Notes under the pieces: generated by a model
The model's input: the letters and a program-made list of their open reading frames with translations, nothing else
Told to the model about the DNA's origin: nothing
Databases searched by the model: none
Shown: piece after piece, positions 2,275-53,834 of the stretch
Numbering within the stretch: position 1 is the stretch's first letter
Layout: each line of letters starts with the position of its first letter
Translations under genes and position numbers: made by a program
From: a bacterium UBP8_UBA817
GTDB taxonomy: Bacteria > Margulisbacteria > Marinamargulisbacteria > SXXA01 > SICP01
Direction of reading: 5' to 3'
DNA: 64,000 bases
Assembly: GCA_945888435.1 (NCBI GenBank)
Contig: CAMCZW010000007.1
Location: 12,700-76,699, forward strand

Positions 2275-3180
2275 TCAGAGTAAAAGATCAGAGGCAGAAA
2301 CCCCCGTCATCTGCTGAATTACATCCCCATCGACCCCTGCCGCTTTCATTTTTCTAGCAATCATGAGCTGACTTTCTAAACGTCCATGCTGTATTCCTTG
2401 TTCTATTCCTAGCTCTAGCCCTTGCTGTAACCCTAGCTCTATTCCTTGCTCCACCCCTTTTTCAATACCTCTCACTTCCGCCGTTCGGATTGCTTCTTCC
2501 TCATCCCGTAGCCATGTTTGCCGACCTTCGTAAATGTCGCGCTCCTCATCAGTTAAAAACAAGGTGTCTAGAACGTGGATGGCCTTGGTAATGTGTGGAT
2601 CTGATTGAAAGGGCGAAGCCCCATGGCGACTGCCAAATTCATGAGATTTTTTTAAAAAGGTCACCCATCGATCTAGCGCCGTCTTCACATGGGACAGTTC
2701 TCCATCACACTTTTTAATCTCAATCGTATGGAGCTGCAAATCAGTAAATGTCCGTGCTTTAGAGTTTAGATTTAAGACGCCAAACACATTATGATACTCA
2801 GGTTCATCCAATAAATTAAAGTTAAGGACATGGATGCCGATCGTTTTTCTCAGGGCCTCATAGGGGACGAATTCCTGGATCTGATCGGCATACAACTTCG
2901 ACCAACAATAAAGCGCTCGTTTTTCATATCCCAATTGATCCGTAATCTGCATCTCGATATTCAAATGCCGACCATCCTCCGCCACAGCTTTAATATCAAA
3001 AATGGATACCTTTTCCTGCTGAAACCGCTTAAGCGTATACGGATTTTTAAGCGTCAACTCAACAATCTTTTCCTCAGGTTCAAGTACTGCATTCACAAAC
3101 GCCATCAACAGGTCCTTATTTTCTTCGGACCCAAACAACTTTTTAAACGCAAAATCGACTCTCGGATTAATCTTGGTCAT
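2275..3180 (-). CDS. Rpn-family recombination-promoting nuclease / PD-(D/E)XK transposase-like protein (Transposase_31 family)
   Basis: N-terminus MTKINPRVDFAFKKLFGSEENKDLLMAFVNAVL is typical of the Rpn/YhgA family. The C-terminal tandem GIEKGVEQGIELGLQQGLELGIEQGIQHG repeats are characteristic of this family. ATG at 3178-3180. Confidence 0.7.
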   Translation of the reverse strand: MTKINPRVDFAFKKLFGSEENKDLLMAFVNAVLEPEEKIVELTLKNPYTLKRFQQEKVSIFDIKAVAEDGRHLNIEMQITDQLGYEKRALYCWSKLYADQIQEFVPYEALRKTIGIHVLNFNLLDEPEYHNVFGVLNLNSKARTFTDLQLHTIEIKKCDGELSHVKTALDRWVTFLKKSHEFGSRHGASPFQSDPHITKAIHVLDTLFLTDEERDIYEGRQTWLRDEEEAIRTAEVRGIEKGVEQGIELGLQQGLELGIEQGIQHGRLESQLMIARKMKAAGVDGDVIQQMTGVSASDLLL

Positions 3181-14611: not shown

Positions 14612-14624
14612 TCCTATCCCCGTA

Positions 14625-14655
14625 GAGACAGGTTTCAAACCTGTCTCCTATTATT
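14625..14655 (+). terminator. putative rho-independent terminator after the tlpA-like gene
   Basis: Hairpin gagacagg-tttcaaa-cctgtctc (8-bp stem) 14 nt after the stop codon, followed by a T-rich stretch. Confidence 0.45.
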
Positions 14656-14705
14656 TCCGCACCCACATCTTAACTACGTCAAATAAATTATGATAGCATA
14701 ATAAA

Positions 14706-16177: not shown

Positions 16178-16182
16178 CTCCA

Positions 16183-16406
16183 GATAATACTCACCCTAAA
16201 TCCCTCTCTTTTCAAAAGAGGGACTTCTAAAGGTTAATTGTTACACCCCTTATTGAAAGGATAAATAAACCTACAAACAATCGCCGGGCGTATGCAATAC
16301 GCCACTACGGGAACCAATGTAGGGGTACCCCTACGGGATTATGGATTTATCTTAAGGGATCAAAGTCCCTCTTTTGAAAAGAGAGGGATTTAGGGTGAGT
16401 ATTATC
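16183..16406. repeat. MITE/REP-like element, copy A: 42-bp perfect terminal inverted repeats (gataatactcaccctaaatccctctcttttcaaaagagggac) flanking a 140-bp hairpin-rich core
   Basis: Positions 16183-16224 are the exact reverse complement of 16365-16406. The core contains the palindromes ggcgtatgcaatacgcc (16287-16303) and gtaggggtacccctac (16319-16334). Related copies lie at 35810-35924 and 53689-53800. The element sits between convergent gene ends. Confidence 0.8.
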
Positions 16407-16444
16407 TTAGACCAAAGGGAGGTTATGGGGGAGGGTTTGTACCA

Positions 16445-17880: not shown

Positions 17881-20800
17881 AGCCTTTTACACTCTCAGAC
17901 ACTTCAATCATCACTCGATTTATTTCACCCAAAAACTGATCAACAGAAATCTCCCCTTCATTTTCCTCTCCCATCAACCTCCTGGCAATTCGTAGCAACA
18001 TCACGTCATCTTGAGGTAACGAATGCGTTTGTCGGTCATCACTCAGCTGAAGAACATGCTCCAACCGTCTTAAAAAGATATAGGCCTCCAACAATCGATC
18101 TACCGCCGAATTAGGCAGCAATTCATACCGTTTCAGTGAAAACAATGCAGCCACCGTATGCCCTACAAATAAGTCAGGGTATTCCTGCACATGCTGAAGC
18201 TGAATCACCTGAACCAAAAACTCAATATCCCGTATCCCTCCCTGACCATTTTTAATATCCACCGTTGATAACAGACGACGCTTAGCAGCCGCCACCGATT
18301 GCTGTCTTAAAAACGCCACCTGCCGAGGAAGCATTTGATAACTCCCCTTAGAAATCAGCTGTCTGATTCGAGTCATCGCCTCAAACCCGACCATCCAATT
18401 ACCCGCCGCTGGCATACACCGTAAAAAAGCCTGATACTCCCACAATGACGCATGTGTCTCATAATAATGAACCCACTGATCTAACTGAATGACCAGCTCT
18501 CCAGACCGGCCAAAAGGCCGCAATTTAAAGTCTACCCGATACATCAATCCACCCTCTTCAACTTTCATGACATAGTCTCTAAATCGTTCAACCACACGGG
18601 TATAAATCGCATGAAGGGCATCCTGGTCAACCCCGGCTTCTTCGCCGTAGCAAGGATCATAAATCGCCACCAAATCCAGGTCAGAACTATAATTAAGCTC
18701 TCCACCCCCCAGCTTTCCAAATGCCACCAAACATAGCCCCAGGGACACTTGTTCAATTTGATCCTGAGTTAGGCCAAAATCTTGAGTCCGCCATATCTGA
18801 TTTAAAACTGCAGTAATAATACTTTGGGCCAAGCGAGTCAGTTCGGCCGTAATATCCACCAGCGGCGATTGAAGATACAAATCTCTGATCGCAATCTTAA
18901 GTAATTCCCGACGTCTCACCATCGCCATTTGAACACGTGCATCTGGCAACGTCGCAATCGATGCCAGCTCTTCATCCAGCCAACCCCGTTTTAAAAGTTC
19001 ATTCAAATATTTTTGATTAAATACCCATTCCATACTTTCTGGGCGACTAATCAAAAGCATCGATAAAAACTGGCTCATCACAAAGACATCCAGCAACATA
19101 TCTAACACCATCGGTTGCCGAGAAACTGCTTTAAAATGCGCTGCTTTATTAGGAAGATTCGCTAAAAATCGCTCCCAGACATTAAGCACCTGATCCGGAT
19201 CCGTTTTAAACGGCCTAGTATGTGAGGCCAACACCAGGACGCTCGCCACCAAAGATATTGGTTTTACGCCCGACATCATCTTCACTAAATTAGAATACGC
19301 CTGAGTCACATTCCGTATCCCCAATCGCGTCAAAATCATATCTCTTCGGATTGAATCCAATTGCGGGTTAAGCACGATATCCGCCAAATTACCCGCCGCC
19401 GGATACGAAATCGACGAAAAATACTCCGATACAAATCCCCGCACCTGCGCCGTAAAATAATCAAAATCGGCCATTAATAACACCGACGGCGACATCTGGC
19501 CTTTTGCCAAATATCCAATCCGCCTCGCCAAATAATCTAATTCCAGAGACCCTTCCACAGGCAAATCCAAATCCTTGGCATTACCTCTAAGCATTCTCAG
19601 TCCATTAATCAAATGTCTAAAAAAATCATAAGATCGATTAAGGTGATCCTGCTGAGCCTTTTTTAATACCCCAATTTGCTTAAGTCCAGCCAACGCATCA
19701 TGAATACTTGGAGTACGTAATATGCCGGAATGCCGACCATGCTCCACCTGTAAAATTTGAACGGCATATTCCAAATCCACCAAAGCCCCTGCACTAAATT
19801 TGGCATTGGCTTTACCCGATGTTACTTTTTCAGATAACTGACGCTGACGAAGTTGCCACAAGGACTGCACATCCAAATGCCCCGACAAATACACATACTC
19901 ATCTCTAAGCCGAATCACCTGCTCACCTAACCTAAACTGCCCCGCAACAAAGCGCATCCGTACTAACGCCAACCGCTCATATTCATGGATTTTCTCTTCA
20001 AATCCACCATAATATCGATTAAATAAATCCAGGCTCACCGCGAGTGGTCCCGAGTTTCCATAAGGTCTCAATCTAAAATCCAACTGAAAAATCCCGTCTC
20101 TTTTTGATTTCAACTTCTCACCCAAGCCCTGGACTAACTTAGAAAAAAACTCGCTATTCGACATCGACACCTCTCCCGACGTCATCCCCTCATCCCCAAA
20201 TACCACCATCAACTCGATATCCGAGGCATACCCCAACGCCATCCCGCCCATCTTCCCAAGTCCCATGACGGCATAAGGGGTTTCAATTCCGCCCACCCCA
20301 GTCGGTGCCCCGTACTGACGCTTTAAATCCTGATAAATCCATTTTGTAAGTACTCTAATGACCAACTCTGCAAGCAAGGTCAATTGACTCGATAACGCCC
20401 TAAAATCAAATTCACCCGCCATATGATTAAGATCGATATAATAATTCTCTCGATTTTTAAATTCGTTTAAGGCCGAGACTCGTTCATCTAAGGAAGCAAT
20501 CCCTCTAACAGCACGGCGAAATCTGATAGATAACTCCCTCAAATTAAATACTTTGCCCAATTGAGAAATATGAGGTTTAAGCACCGGCAATACCGCATCA
20601 TGATGCGTCCGGATAAAGTCTTCCCATAGATAATCACTAGTCCCCAAAATTCGGGCAAAATCCTTAAGTACCCGCGGATTAGAGAGTAACCCCACCCATT
20701 CATTACCCGTCGCAAGCGCCAAAATATGAGACACCAATTGCTGAAATCTCGACAACGCATCAAACGGATTAGGCGACCGATCCAAAAAAAACGTAAACTG

Positions 20801-27613: not shown

Positions 27614-28027
27614 ATGACCATAAACATACGATGGAAACAACGATTTGAGCATTTTATCTTAGCCATCCTTCAGCTGGAAGAAGCCTTGTTGGCCTATGCT
27701 AACCATCCCACCAATACACTTTATCCAATGGCCATTATCCAAAGTTTTGAATTCACCTATGAACTCTCATGGAAGACTCTCAAGGATTATTTAACTCTAA
27801 ACGGAGTCCAAACCTCTCTTCCAAAAGAAACCATTAAATTAGCCTTCAAACATGAACTCATCGACAACGGACAAGAATGGATCAATATGCTTGAAGATCG
27901 CAATTTATTAGCCCATACCTACAGCAGTCAGGCATCCAAAGATGCCATTCAACGAATTGCATCAATCTATATTGGCCAACTAAGGCACTTCAAAACAACA
28001 TTCGAAAAACGATATGCTGAAGACTAA
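27614..28027 (+). CDS. HEPN-type nucleotidyltransferase substrate-binding protein (HI0074 family) - toxin partner of a HepT/MntA-like TA pair
   Basis: MTINIRWKQRFEHFILAILQLEEAL is typical of the HI0074 family. Overlaps the MNT gene by 14 nt. Confidence 0.7.
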   Translation: MTINIRWKQRFEHFILAILQLEEALLAYANHPTNTLYPMAIIQSFEFTYELSWKTLKDYLTLNGVQTSLPKETIKLAFKHELIDNGQEWINMLEDRNLLAHTYSSQASKDAIQRIASIYIGQLRHFKTTFEKRYAED

Positions 28028-28340
28028 TTCAGACTCCACTTCTTTTGGCATCCCCAAATCATCATTTCAATTGATCATAACTACTCTTCACTCATTCCCA
28101 GAAATTAAATGGGTCAAGCTGTACGGCTCAAGAGCACTCGGAACAGAAAAAAAAGGATCCGATATCGACATCGCCTACAGTGGCCCATCCCACATTCAGG
28201 CCCACCTCCTTGAACAACTGGAAGACCTAAGTACCCCCTATACATTTGATGTCACCCACTATGAAGAAATTACAGAAATCGGGTTTAAACATCATATTGA
28301 TAATCACGGAGTTTTACTGATTAAAAAAATCGGGATTTAA
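28014..28340 (+). CDS. minimal nucleotidyltransferase (MNT, HI0073-like) - antitoxin partner
   Basis: LYGSRALGTEKKGSDIDIAYSG (GS...DxD nucleotidyltransferase motif). Confidence 0.75.
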   Translation: MLKTNSDSTSFGIPKSSFQLIITTLHSFPEIKWVKLYGSRALGTEKKGSDIDIAYSGPSHIQAHLLEQLEDLSTPYTFDVTHYEEITEIGFKHHIDNHGVLLIKKIGI

Positions 28341-28747: not shown

Positions 28748-28954
28748 ATGAGAACCAACATTATCATTGACGATGATCTCATAAGAGAAGGGATGAAATT
28801 TAGTGCTATAAAAACAAAAAAAGCATTAATCCAGTATGCTCTCGAAGAATACATCGAAAATCATCGTCGTAAAAATATGGCTGATTTAAAAGGAAAAATT
28901 ACATTTTCTGAAGAATATGATCATAAAAAATTAAGACAAAATAGAATCTCATGA
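28748..28954 (+). CDS. vapB: type II antitoxin VapB (ribbon-helix-helix, Rv0623/VapB family)
   Basis: MRTNIIIDDDLIREGMKFSAIKTKKALIQYALEEYIENHRRKN. SD AAGGAG lies 6 nt before the ATG at 28748; the track start at 28721 lacks an RBS. The stop overlaps the vapC start (ATGA). Confidence 0.6.
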   Translation: MRTNIIIDDDLIREGMKFSAIKTKKALIQYALEEYIENHRRKNMADLKGKITFSEEYDHKKLRQNRIS

Positions 28955-29349
28955 TTCTCGTAGATACATCCGTTTGGATTGACTTTTTAAGAAATAAAAA
29001 AAATGACCAGGTGTCAAAACTAGATACCTTAATCAGAGAGAGAATTCCATTCGGTATTAATGAATTTATATATCAAGAACTCTTACAAGGAACTAAAGAC
29101 GTACAAGAATTTAAACTCCTAAAAAGTTATCTGGATACCCAACGCTTTTACCCACTTCCAAACGAAAAAACTCCCTATGCTGAGGCCGCAAAAAGATATT
29201 TTTTATGTAGACGAGAAGGTTATACAATCAGAAGCAGTATCGACATGCTAATCGTTCAAACCTGCATAAGTCACAAACTGTCATTGCTTCACAACGATAA
29301 AGATTTTGAAAAAATAGCCAAAATCGAAAAGAAATTACATTTTTATTAA
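28951..29349 (+). CDS. vapC: PIN-domain toxin VapC
   Basis: MILVDTSVWIDFLRN N-terminus with acidic PIN residues (D5, E, D). Confidence 0.8.
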   Translation: MILVDTSVWIDFLRNKKNDQVSKLDTLIRERIPFGINEFIYQELLQGTKDVQEFKLLKSYLDTQRFYPLPNEKTPYAEAAKRYFLCRREGYTIRSSIDMLIVQTCISHKLSLLHNDKDFEKIAKIEKKLHFY

Positions 29350-35809: not shown

Positions 35810-35924
35810 TTAATACTCACCCACCCACCTCCCTCTCTATTCTAAAGAGGGAGGCTTTTTATACATAAATAATCAAAACCAGTTCCCCTCTTTGGCACAG
35901 AGAGGGGTTAGGGGTGAGTGTTAA
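35810..35924. repeat. MITE/REP-like element, copy B (~115 bp; imperfect TIR ttaatactcaccc ... gggtgagtgttaa; two internal hairpins)
   Basis: Hairpins cctccctct-ctattctaa-agagggagg and cccctct-ttggcacag-agagggg. About 80% identical to copy C and shares its termini with copy A. Lies 7 nt after the rfbC stop. Confidence 0.75.
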
Positions 35925-50632: not shown

Positions 50633-51472
50633 ATGAGCCAATTGATGAGCGGCAAGAAAGGAATTGTGTTTGGCGTAAGCAACAAACGAGGAATTGCCCA
50701 TGCAATCGCTGAAAAGCTGCATGAACATGGCGCCGAAATTGCATTTACATATGCCGGCGAAATCATGAAAGATCGGGTAACCCCTATTGCAGAAGAAATG
50801 GGATCAAAATTGATCATGCCCTGTGACGTCACGAGCGACGACGAAATCAAAGCAGTATTTAAAGAATTTAAACGCATCTATGGCCGATTAGACTTTGTCA
50901 TCCATGCCGTGGCCTTTGCCAACAAAGAAGATTTAGGCGGACAGTTTTACAACCAAACCAAAGAAGGCTGGGATTTAGCATTAGGCGTAAGTGCCTATTC
51001 TCTTATACCTATTACAAGAGAAGCTCGTCCCTTAATGACAGAAGGCGGATCTATCGTCACGCTGTCCTACTTAGGTGGAGAGAGATATGTCCCTAACTAC
51101 AACATTATGGGCGTCGCCAAGGCTGCGCTTGAATGCACAGTACGCTACCTTGCCGCAGAACTAGGAAGAGAAGGTATCCGAGTCAACGCACTTTCAGCTG
51201 GCCCAGTCAAAACTCTGGCCGCAAAAGGAATCAGCGGATTTGATATCCTCTACAAAATCACCGAAGCAAGATCCCCAATGAAACGAAATATCACACTCGA
51301 TGAAGTCGGTAACTCCGGCTTATACCTGGCCTCCCATCTCTCAAGTGGCGTTACAGGCGAAACCCACCACGTCGATTGCGGTTACCACGCCATTTCGACA
51401 GTTAAAGCCGACGCAAAAATCGTAGGTGTCGACGTCGAAGCCGACGAAGCCGCCGCGAATCAAGACATCTAA
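50633..51472 (+). CDS. fabI: enoyl-[acyl-carrier-protein] reductase (NADH) FabI
   Basis: GKKGIVFGVSNKRGIAHAIAEKLHEHGAEIAFTY and the Y-x6-K catalytic motif region. Confidence 0.9.
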   Translation: MSQLMSGKKGIVFGVSNKRGIAHAIAEKLHEHGAEIAFTYAGEIMKDRVTPIAEEMGSKLIMPCDVTSDDEIKAVFKEFKRIYGRLDFVIHAVAFANKEDLGGQFYNQTKEGWDLALGVSAYSLIPITREARPLMTEGGSIVTLSYLGGERYVPNYNIMGVAKAALECTVRYLAAELGREGIRVNALSAGPVKTLAAKGISGFDILYKITEARSPMKRNITLDEVGNSGLYLASHLSSGVTGETHHVDCGYHAISTVKADAKIVGVDVEADEAAANQDI

Positions 51473-51483
51473 CAAACCCGTAG

Positions 51484-51508
51484 GGGCGTATTGCATACGC
51501 CCTTATTT
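51484..51508 (+). terminator. rho-independent terminator after fabI (gggcgtat-tgc-atacgccc + TTATTT)
   Basis: 8-bp GC-rich stem 12 nt after the stop. The same hairpin module (reverse complement) occurs inside repeat copy A. Confidence 0.55.
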
Positions 51509-51516
51509 AATACGCC

Positions 51517-52257
51517 CTAAGTGGGCCACAAGGCCCCAACATATTCCCTAGCATCCATCGTAATCGGCATATGATAGGTATGTTGATTATATTTTCCGGC
51601 CAACGCCATCAAATCATGCGCCAACCTAAGATTATATCTAAGATCTAACTGAAAAAAGTCAGAAAAAGTCACATGATTGCGAACCGTCCAATAGGTTTTT
51701 GATTTCTCAGTCAACACCGGAGAAATCCCTAAAAACAACTGCGTCTGAGTCAGGCGAGATAAATACCAATCTGATAATTCCAGATCAAAAAAAGGTTGAG
51801 TAAAAAACCCATCACATCCAACACCTAATTTTTGGTGACAATAGGATAGCTCCGCCTCAGCGGAAGTTCGGTAAGGATCCAACGCCCCATACACGATTAA
51901 CTGTGGGAAACGCCGTTTTAATAAAGTAATCATGTCGATCGCAGTTAAGGGCGCATCATGAGCAAGCTCAGGATAGACATCCCCACTGACAACCAAAACA
52001 TGGGTTAACCCTAAGCCGACCAACTCATCAAACAAAATAATTGCAGTCTCCGCCGTAAAATCCACACTTCGGATATGCGGCACGACAAAATAACCGTGGC
52101 TTAAAAACACCTTAGCAACATCATAACTTCGTATCGGGAGACGCCGAACATCTGGAATGTTAATCCCATTCACATGAGAATACTGAGTCAACAAATGGGC
52201 GGCATCAGCAGTAACAGACTCTAAACTTCGGGGGACAAGCTCAATTAAGTTCATCAT
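51517..52257 (-). CDS. methylenetetrahydrofolate reductase-like protein (short MetF/MTHFR family)
   Basis: Segments VLVVSGD, CDGFFTQPFFDLE, and an N-terminal LIELVPRSLESV resemble the MTHFR TIM-barrel. Confidence 0.45.
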   Translation of the reverse strand: MMNLIELVPRSLESVTADAAHLLTQYSHVNGINIPDVRRLPIRSYDVAKVFLSHGYFVVPHIRSVDFTAETAIILFDELVGLGLTHVLVVSGDVYPELAHDAPLTAIDMITLLKRRFPQLIVYGALDPYRTSAEAELSYCHQKLGVGCDGFFTQPFFDLELSDWYLSRLTQTQLFLGISPVLTEKSKTYWTVRNHVTFSDFFQLDLRYNLRLAHDLMALAGKYNQHTYHMPITMDAREYVGALWPT

Positions 52258-53615: not shown

Positions 53616-53688
53616 AAAAGCTCCTGTAGGGAAAATATTTTGTTATGATATCAGAGATTGTAGTTTCTACAACGTTATACAATTTCCA

Positions 53689-53800
53689 GATAACACTCAC
53701 CCACCAACCTCCCTCTCTGTTCCAAAGAGGGAGGCTCAAGGAGTTAATCCATACAAATTCCCCTCTTTGGAACAGAGAGGGGCTAGGGGTGAGTATTATC
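53689..53800. repeat. MITE/REP-like element, copy C (~112 bp; TIR gataacactcaccc ... gggtgagtattatc; two internal hairpins)
   Basis: About 80% identical to copy B. Lies in the divergent promoter region between the NtrC-like and sensor kinase genes. Confidence 0.75.
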
Positions 53801-53834
53801 TTCTTATAGTTGCTTACAATCGCTTAACTCATTT

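Follow-up and report, generated by a model that had tools for sequence, protein, structure and literature searches.

A palindromic insertion beside panE, probably a non-autonomous member of a hairpin-ended repeat family associated with DUF559 genes, that carries REP-type hairpins

What kind of element is the long palindrome that lies between the convergent ends of a pseudopilin gene and panE in the window (the whole stretch of 64,000 nucleotides analysed here), how did it come to be there, and to what enzyme might its ends belong? The element, called copy A, is 226 bp long (Table 1). The preliminary description had credited it with a perfect 42-bp terminal inverted repeat (TIR), and this repeat is real and even longer, with arms that are complementary at 45 of 45 positions and stand 136 nt apart; none of 100 shuffles of the window gave any match. 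Each arm has a small hairpin of its own, and the right arm can also pair, with 85% complementarity along 41 nt, with the right end of copy C, a second element of the window described below. When 16178-16444 was folded as single-stranded DNA it reached -68.3 kcal/mol (z = -12), and the predicted fold pairs, inside the core, a second-level imperfect inverted repeat made up of CCCTTA..GATAAAT (about 16246-16265) and ATTTATC.TAAGGG (about 16345-16358). Of the two perfect palindromes that the core was said to contain, one stands, as GTAGGGGTACCCCTAC (16319-16334) is a perfect 16-bp palindrome, and the other proves to be a hairpin whose 7-bp stem is closed by a loop of 3 nt (GGCGTAT-GCA-ATACGCC, 16287-16303). 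The only ORF overlapping copy A encodes 62 aa and exits through the right arm. Rfam returned nothing for the whole window at gathering thresholds and only chance matches of miRNA type around copy A at E values up to 10, and the core outside its shared hairpin module had no match in the loci that were fetched.

The organism has a GC content of 44% and occurs in European lake metagenomes, and its proteins share only about 50% identity with the closest named ones. Elsewhere in the window we noted tandem 108-bp Gly/Ala-rich coding repeats with a 60-nt sub-unit (46502-46777, in a 1579-aa ORF at 43988-48727), a putative toxin-antitoxin pair of a nucleotidyltransferase substrate-binding protein and a Pol-beta-type nucleotidyltransferase (27614-28340), a separate PIN-domain gene (28951-29349), and 70-79% identical direct repeats formed by adjacent paralogous genes (62103-63461/63596-63907 and 23541-25175/25175-26929).

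Comparison with relatives identifies copy A as a true insertion, because the convergent stops of the pseudopilin gene and panE almost abut in two of them, being 4 bp apart in L082 (PanE 92% identical) and 8 bp apart in L083 (PanE 81% identical), against 267 bp in the window. The inserted block spans about 262 bp, from about 16182 to 16444, that is copy A plus 37 bp, and had no blastn match in plasmids. The 37-bp rest, which is also missing at both empty sites, is identical to the long-linker type of family end (see below) at 19 of 23 positions, with a score of 28 that was equalled by the best of 300 shuffles (mean 15.3, sd 3.2); it is probably a truncated and decayed end of this type, on an alignment that is statistically weak. 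Two independent insertions of solo ends around an old spacer were rejected, given that the ancestral spacer measured merely 4-8 bp. No direct repeats that would represent a target-site duplication were visible on the flanks of copies A, B and C, and at the one empty site the sequence has diverged too far for the junction to be placed. All contigs with an identical PanE hold copy A, and in the eight of eight contigs shown for the species the locus differs by at most one base over 601 bp, most being 100% identical. Among the near-identical contigs L035-L052 indels were found, none of which involved family copies, and no empty site was seen among close strains.

Copy A has relatives in the window. 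A scan with a degenerate end motif (ACTCACCC-N3-10-CCCTCTCTNTNCNAAAGAGGG) found six ends where none was expected by chance, and these six define three elements, copies A, B and C. A family end consists of TAAYACTCACCC, a short linker and then a hairpin of the form CCCTCTCT..AGAGGG. In a canonical copy, the outer TIR (TAAYACTCACCC / GGGTGAGTRTTA) is combined with unpaired linkers, two inner hairpins and a spacer of about 20-30 nt; the linker has 8 nt at one end and 4-5 nt at the other (TAAAT, CTAG or CTAAC), and the whole folds into a single long foldback or, alternatively, into a three-way junction. Copy C, which is located in a divergent-promoter region, folds as DNA at -33.8 kcal/mol (z = -8), and its inner hairpins are complementary to one another at 21 of 21 positions. 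When perfect stems of 7 bp or more were looked for beside CTCAYYC, most of the family ends were missed because the inner hairpin keeps a C.A / T.G mismatch. In the hairpins of the window type (CCCTCTCT / AAAGAGGG; 16202-16223, 35831-35852, 53711-53732 and their partners) this mismatch is C.A or T.G on opposite strands. The T.G mismatch is the substrate of Vsr, a relative of the DUF559 nucleases discussed below; inner-hairpin stems are perfect in other lineages, and the T.G mismatch may be incidental. Six family elements, a solo unit included, were counted in about 102 kb of non-redundant DNA of the organism, a set composed of the window and of contigs from the same or close organisms that were reached through paralogues of an Rpn-like gene. 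The view of copy A as a MITE-like element without an ORF, one of a dispersed set of inverted repeats with hairpin ends, is supported.

Table 1. Location and composition of copy A, its relatives and the hairpin modules; positions refer to the window unless another locus is named.
Feature	Position	Strand	Description
Copy A	16182-16407		whole element
Copy A, left arm	16182-16226	+	AGATAATACTCACCC, linker TAAAT, hairpin CCCTCTCT-TTTCA-AAAGAGGG, then ACTT
Copy A, right arm	16363-16407	-	exact reverse complement of the left arm
Copy A, core	16227-16362	none	136 bp
37-bp rest of the inserted block	16408-16444	-	TACAAACCCTCCCCCATAACCTCCCTTTGG, compared with long-linker end TAACACTCACCCACCAACCTCCCTCTCTG
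GTAG REP-type module in copy A	16280-16311	-	CCCGTAG-T-GGCGTAT-TGC-ATACGCC-CGGCGAT
Second GTAG module in copy A	16319-16337	-	CCCGTAGGGGTACCCCTAC, 16-bp perfect palindrome
Copy B	35810-35924	+	115 bp; one long-linker and one short-linker end; DNA fold z = -4.8
Copy C	53688-53801	+	114 bp; one long-linker and one short-linker end
Solo GTAG hairpin	51477-51502	+	between fabI (50633-51472, +) and convergent gene 51517-52257 (-)
Solo GTAG hairpin, other stem type	14619-14650	+	CCCGTAG-AGACAGGTTT-CA-AACCTGTCT
L070			whole 70-bp module as direct repeats on both sides of DUF559 gene
L074, Ignavibacteria	990-1960 (L074)		tandem [module-gene]x2-module array
L079			module adjoins DUF559 gene
L084	1855-2010 (L084)		DUF559 gene between pflB and pflA, then three modules (at the position given)
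Synechocystis sp. B12 plasmid			module adjoins DUF559 gene
Pseudanabaena sp. ABRG5-3 plasmid			module adjoins DUF559 gene

The hairpins in the core have a different affiliation. GTAG-REPs are defined by an unpaired GTAG tag, stems of 6-13 bp and short loops, with several families per genome and a location downstream of ORFs (PMC3733652). The core hairpins match this definition; they are GTAG-tagged hairpins of REP type and form a second repeat family independent of the first. Eight modules of this type, all of them intergenic, were found in the 102 kb, six of which start with CCCGTAG; a loop of 3 nt closes the stems of 7-8 bp and one of 5 nt those of 9-12 bp, and the remaining type is a 16-bp palindrome. 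Three stem types can be told apart, namely GGCGTATTGCATACGCC (16311 on the minus strand, 51477 on the plus strand and L043 1820-1850), AGACAGGTTTSAAACCTGTCT (14619 on the plus strand, L043 1866-1901, and L048 19106 and 19180) and GGGTACCCC (16337 on the minus strand). All four extragenic CCCGTAG sites of the window are followed by a hairpin, and the three sites inside ORFs are not. The two modules of copy A stand head-to-tail, 26 nt apart. The first of them had been described as the reverse complement of a hairpin at the fabI terminator, with 26 of 27 nt identical; the hairpin does recur there, with 25 of 26 positions (96%) complementary between 16286-16311 and 51477-51502, flanks included, and GGCGTATGCAATACGCC occurs in the window only at 16287-16303 (plus strand) and 51485-51501 (minus strand). 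The fabI block starts 5 nt past the stop codon of this gene and its hairpin (8-bp stem; DNA fold z = -2.8) 12 nt past it, and TTATTT follows; a scan for consensus terminators did not call one at this hairpin, and a terminator role, taken for granted at first, is plausible from its position and layout. At L043 1820-1850 the same stem recurs with its 3' flank CGGCGAT kept and the tag absent, and a 21-nt exact match that takes in the extended flank (GCCCGGCGAT) lies at L043 1827-1847. The idea of REP-like hairpins nested in a MITE is thus borne out, with modules that also occur alone (directly downstream of fabI, and in L043 at 1820-1850), and neither the terminal inverted repeat type nor the shared hairpin, the latter present at more than two places, is unique. 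As an aside, the spacer between tlpA and gspH holds a GTAG hairpin in the window (14612-14705) and a solo family end (TTAACACTCACCCACCAACCTCCCTCTCTATTCTAAAGAGGGAGGC) in L082 (4581-4690), bounded in both by a common TTAACTACGTCAAATAA; this difference in contents means that both kinds of repeat turn over quickly.

The ends of copy A are found well beyond this organism. The exact end motif occurs in 34 loci of species-representative genomes, whose hosts include Anaerobacterium chartisolvens (many loci), Bacillota and Clostridia MAGs, Margulisiibacteriota, Saprospiraceae, UBP8 and a deltaproteobacterial MAG, and in 17 metagenome contigs; there was no match in viral contigs. The same end design adjoins small genes for DUF559, a Vsr-like PD-(D/E)XK domain, in Margulisiibacteriota, Clostridia, Ignavibacteria, cyanobacterial plasmids and metagenomes, and surrounds such genes in at least six phyla. 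In three loci (L022, L015 and L068), two ends enclose exactly one intact ORF of about 120-133 aa, which is DUF559 in all three (in L022 with Pfam PF04480 at E = 2e-27). Decayed DUF559 copies lie between or beside ends in L023, L024 and L058/L063, the ORF-less derivatives in L022 keep the first and last codons, and ORF-less and degraded copies adjoin intact ones. About seven of 51 loci selected by the motif have DUF559 or a remnant of it beside an end, and DUF559, which is not known as a transposase, is the only gene that was found repeatedly between family ends in other organisms. The association was also seen from the protein side, as all six DUF559 loci picked by protein similarity alone have adjacent modules (the last six entries of Table 1). 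None of the fetched A. chartisolvens loci had a DUF559 match, and in a Clostridia MAG the similarity between copies reaches about 50 bp past the TIR. Tandem arrays of modules are present in L009 (1560-2010) and L011 (4880-5320) as well as in L074 and L084, with a period of 173 bp in Anaerobacterium and of about 97 bp in a Saprospiraceae MAG.

The modules of the Pseudanabaena plasmid (L086 204-300 and 735-930) have linkers identical to those of the window copies (TAAAT, ACTT and CTAG), whereas their stems, both outer and inner, differ (CTGCCCCC / GGGGGCAG and CCCCCAATTCTGGGGG); this suggests that a unit of structure plus linker is what is recognised. As for the protein, D57, E68 and H74 are invariant across 39 DUF559 homologues and D70 is conserved in at least 90%, and among solved structures 3HRL, an 'endonuclease-like protein', comes closest (profile E = 3e-17). 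At the N- or C-terminus, 27 of 120 homologues bear a tail with a P-S/P-L motif such as the end hairpins encode, and many of these tails read P-S-L..R-G by eye. DUF559 genes have been reported as enriched among predicted inversion targets, meaning that they are flanked by inverted repeats (PMC9881135), and no paper tying DUF559 to a repeat family or to mobility turned up in the literature searched. In the 102 kb of our organism we found neither a DUF559 gene nor an autonomous partner with the same ends, and the link to DUF559 therefore rests on the other phyla.

How, then, did copy A acquire perfect arms? The preliminary description had taken them as a sign of very recent mobilisation, a view that is not supported, since in every other copy the arms are unlike each other (some 65-75% identity in the aligned columns, with indels) and since all eight contigs shown for the species contain copy A in near-identical form. 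Copy A has one and the same end type (short linker TAAAT, then ...GAGGGACTT) on both sides, and this type is also found, paired with a different second end, in L047 33-80/L049 and in a JGI lake contig (L067 440-490). Because copy A has the same end type twice and the others have unlike ends, its arms are better accounted for if one end was locally duplicated in inverted orientation, or converted, than by recent transposition, and we infer that they arose in this way.

Taking these lines of evidence together, we hold with moderate confidence that copy A is a non-autonomous member of the DUF559-associated hairpin-ended family, that it acquired REP hairpins, and that its arms were duplicated or converted. 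A block of about 262 bp was inserted between the convergent stops of the pseudopilin gene and panE. A DUF559-associated selfish element would either have given rise to the short copies by deletion or have used them as its dispersed targets. DUF559 could act in trans as a nuclease that cuts in or near the unpaired linkers, the spacer or the apex. To our knowledge, a PD-(D/E)XK nuclease of 120 aa cannot carry out strand transfer alone; host recombination and repair might copy DNA between modules, with the arms as homology. The core has acquired, with the arrival of copy A or after it, its two head-to-tail GTAG hairpins, of a type that a RAYT-like Y1 enzyme may handle, and one end would have been inverted-duplicated or converted to give the perfect arms. 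The wider proposition, that this is an undescribed class of selfish elements whose sole protein is a Vsr-like DUF559 of about 120 aa, which spreads with or among palindromic modules in at least six phyla and whose ORF-less copies are non-autonomous or serve as landing pads, is possible, and we put it forward tentatively.

It might instead be a Y1 HUH transposase of RAYT or TIRYT type that mobilises the family through single-stranded hairpins, DUF559 being a mere passenger or neighbour, although we regard this as unlikely. Such mobilisation has been proposed for REPINs and for TIRtron repeats, and GGGGWSAS is the TIR motif of TIRYTs (PMC3733652). The family ends do have subterminal hairpins and show no target-site duplication, that motif is matched by GGGGTGAG, which forms the outer TIR in copies B and C, the elements occur as inverted doublets and tandem clusters in the manner of REPs, and the organism has at least two Y1 genes. 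The first of these, RAYT-like and open over 209 codons, lies about 9 kb beyond the window start (L048 19563-20192) and matches NF047646 with 73 bits, below the cut-off of 80; its region (19513-20290) is flanked by a perfect-looking 32-bp TIR, GGGGTCAGACCCTTATGTGTGCAGAAGTGCCA, whose start (GGGGTCAG) fits GGGGWSAS, so that the gene has the arrangement called a 'TIRtron'. The second (L049 17679-18316) is internally deleted, has a 38-bp TIR that is 97% complementary, and adjoins the RNase P RNA gene (L049 17280-17634; Rfam 300 bits). These TIRs have GTCAGA and GTGCCAGAGTAA in common, reading GGGGTCAGACCC...GTGCCAGAGTAA and AGGTGTCAGAGC...GTGCCAGAGTAA, and beyond the GGGGWSAS motif are unrelated to the family ends; with such different TIRs of their own, both genes were rejected as partners of the family. 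Neither is flanked by GTAG hairpins or family ends in the 102 kb seen, and the REP modules nearest to the RAYT-like gene are some 330-390 bp from its TIR, with tatA in between. Moreover, a Y1 gene was matched in only one of the 51 motif-selected loci (L014), where some 5.6 kb separate it from the end, against the seven or so with DUF559 or its remnant beside an end, and the arms have no GTAG tag. It is for the core hairpins that this tag, by analogy, points to an enzyme of the RAYT-type Y1 class, and not to Rpn.

The roles of gene and modules might also be reversed, with DUF559 as an invader of spacers in the manner of a homing endonuclease, copies A, B and C never having been coding and the modules having spread by other means. 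Several loci (such as L070, L074 and L084) have the DUF559 gene flanked by direct repeats of the module and not by one TIR pair, from which it follows that DUF559 may be an invader or passenger of the modules, not their mobiliser. Tandem arrays of module and gene exist, the ORF occupies precisely the spacer that separates the two inner hairpins, the arms would give homology for repair, and a homing endonuclease of a group I intron, PDB 3r3p, belongs to the Vsr/DUF559 group (PMC3424549). Degraded ORF remnants between ends show, however, that at least some of the short forms are decayed coding copies, and the dispersal of the modules is left unexplained; we consider this reading quite improbable and retain that of a non-autonomous member of the DUF559-associated family.

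An Rpn-like PD-(D/E)XK gene in the window (2275-3180) had been put forward as the cognate enzyme of copy A. It encodes a true Rpn member (PDDEXK_2; Pfam 1.3e-57, TIGR01784) and is multi-copy, with 13 members in a 90% cluster, and one paralogue sits at a synteny breakpoint, L043 and L049 having the same genes upstream and different ones downstream, with two REP-type hairpins directly upstream of it in L043. No Rpn copy in the window or in L043-L052 is flanked by family ends, nevertheless, and in other phyla, too, the inspected loci had no Rpn gene enclosed by ends or adjoining them; the suggestion was not borne out, and we rejected the gene as a partner, its involvement being hardly credible. 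It is just as improbable that copy A is immobile, a bidirectional terminator or regulatory palindrome that evolved locally, as its position between convergent genes, its very strong fold potential and the shared hairpin at the fabI 3' end might suggest, considering that the site is empty in relatives (4-8 bp), that the same ends occur at unrelated loci (copy C, in a divergent-promoter region) and in other phyla, and that the terminator scan called nothing at copy A.

If experiments confirm the reading of a DUF559 element, it would represent a new class. DUF559 is a very large family of unknown function (1,893 matches in one search), and were it the engine or the invader of a repeat family that crosses phyla, it would be assigned a biological role, and a nuclease class besides DDE and HUH would be added to the mobility of bacterial repeats. 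The odd 'PSL..RG..GGE' tails on gene-called DUF559 proteins would be explained, as would the DUF559 genes that score as predicted 'programmed inversion' targets (PMC9881135). Locally, copy A has two repeat families stacked in a gene junction that originally was almost without spacer.

MITEs, REPs, and REPs nested in palindromes are already known. Like MITEs such as Correia and Nezha, copy A is small, non-coding and intergenic, has TIRs, is one of numerous dispersed copies and is found in some relatives but not in others; unlike them, its family has no visible target-site duplication and no known partner of IS-transposase type, its full-length relatives carry only the DUF559 nuclease, and its canonical ends differ from one another, each with a hairpin of its own. 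With REP/REPIN-RAYT systems (PMC3116915, PMC3733652, PMC8266576) the family shares inverted hairpin doublets that can fold into long hairpins, its occurrence as singletons, dimers and tandem clusters, and a single nuclease gene flanked by repeats. Its arms, however, are inverted hairpin units without GTAG that flank no RAYT, and the flanked gene encodes a PD-(D/E)XK protein (DUF559), not a Y1 HUH enzyme, and is multi-copy and decaying in the fashion of insertion sequences. With TIRtrons (PMC3733652) the common point is the motif GGGGWSAS, which both the TIR of the RAYT-like gene (GGGGTCAG) and that of copies B and C (GGGGTGAG) fit. In contrast to TIRtron repeats, the TIRs of the Y1 genes are not family ends, and copy A has the motif only as AGGGTGAG. 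The nuclease fold family of DUF559 is that of 3HRL and of the Vsr-like homing endonuclease 3r3p, which we take to be I-Bth0305I and whose gene, like that of DUF559, is small, selfish and inserted in a particular DNA setting. The homing endonuclease is intron-borne and has one target gene, whereas the predicted nuclease DUF559 goes here with a dispersed palindromic repeat. The core hairpins, finally, differ from the usual GTAG-REPs in their head-to-tail order, an arrangement called rare (PMC3733652), and from a REPtron in that no RAYT flanked by REPs of the core type was found, their copy number being known from about 102 kb only. They resemble GTAG-REPs in their unpaired (CCC)GTAG tag, stems of 7-12 bp, short loops, extragenic position and coexisting stem types. 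The closest precedent for their place inside a longer palindromic element is that of Anabaena variabilis, in which GTAG-15 REP dimers are nested in long palindromes (Di Nocera et al. 2013, PMC3733652).
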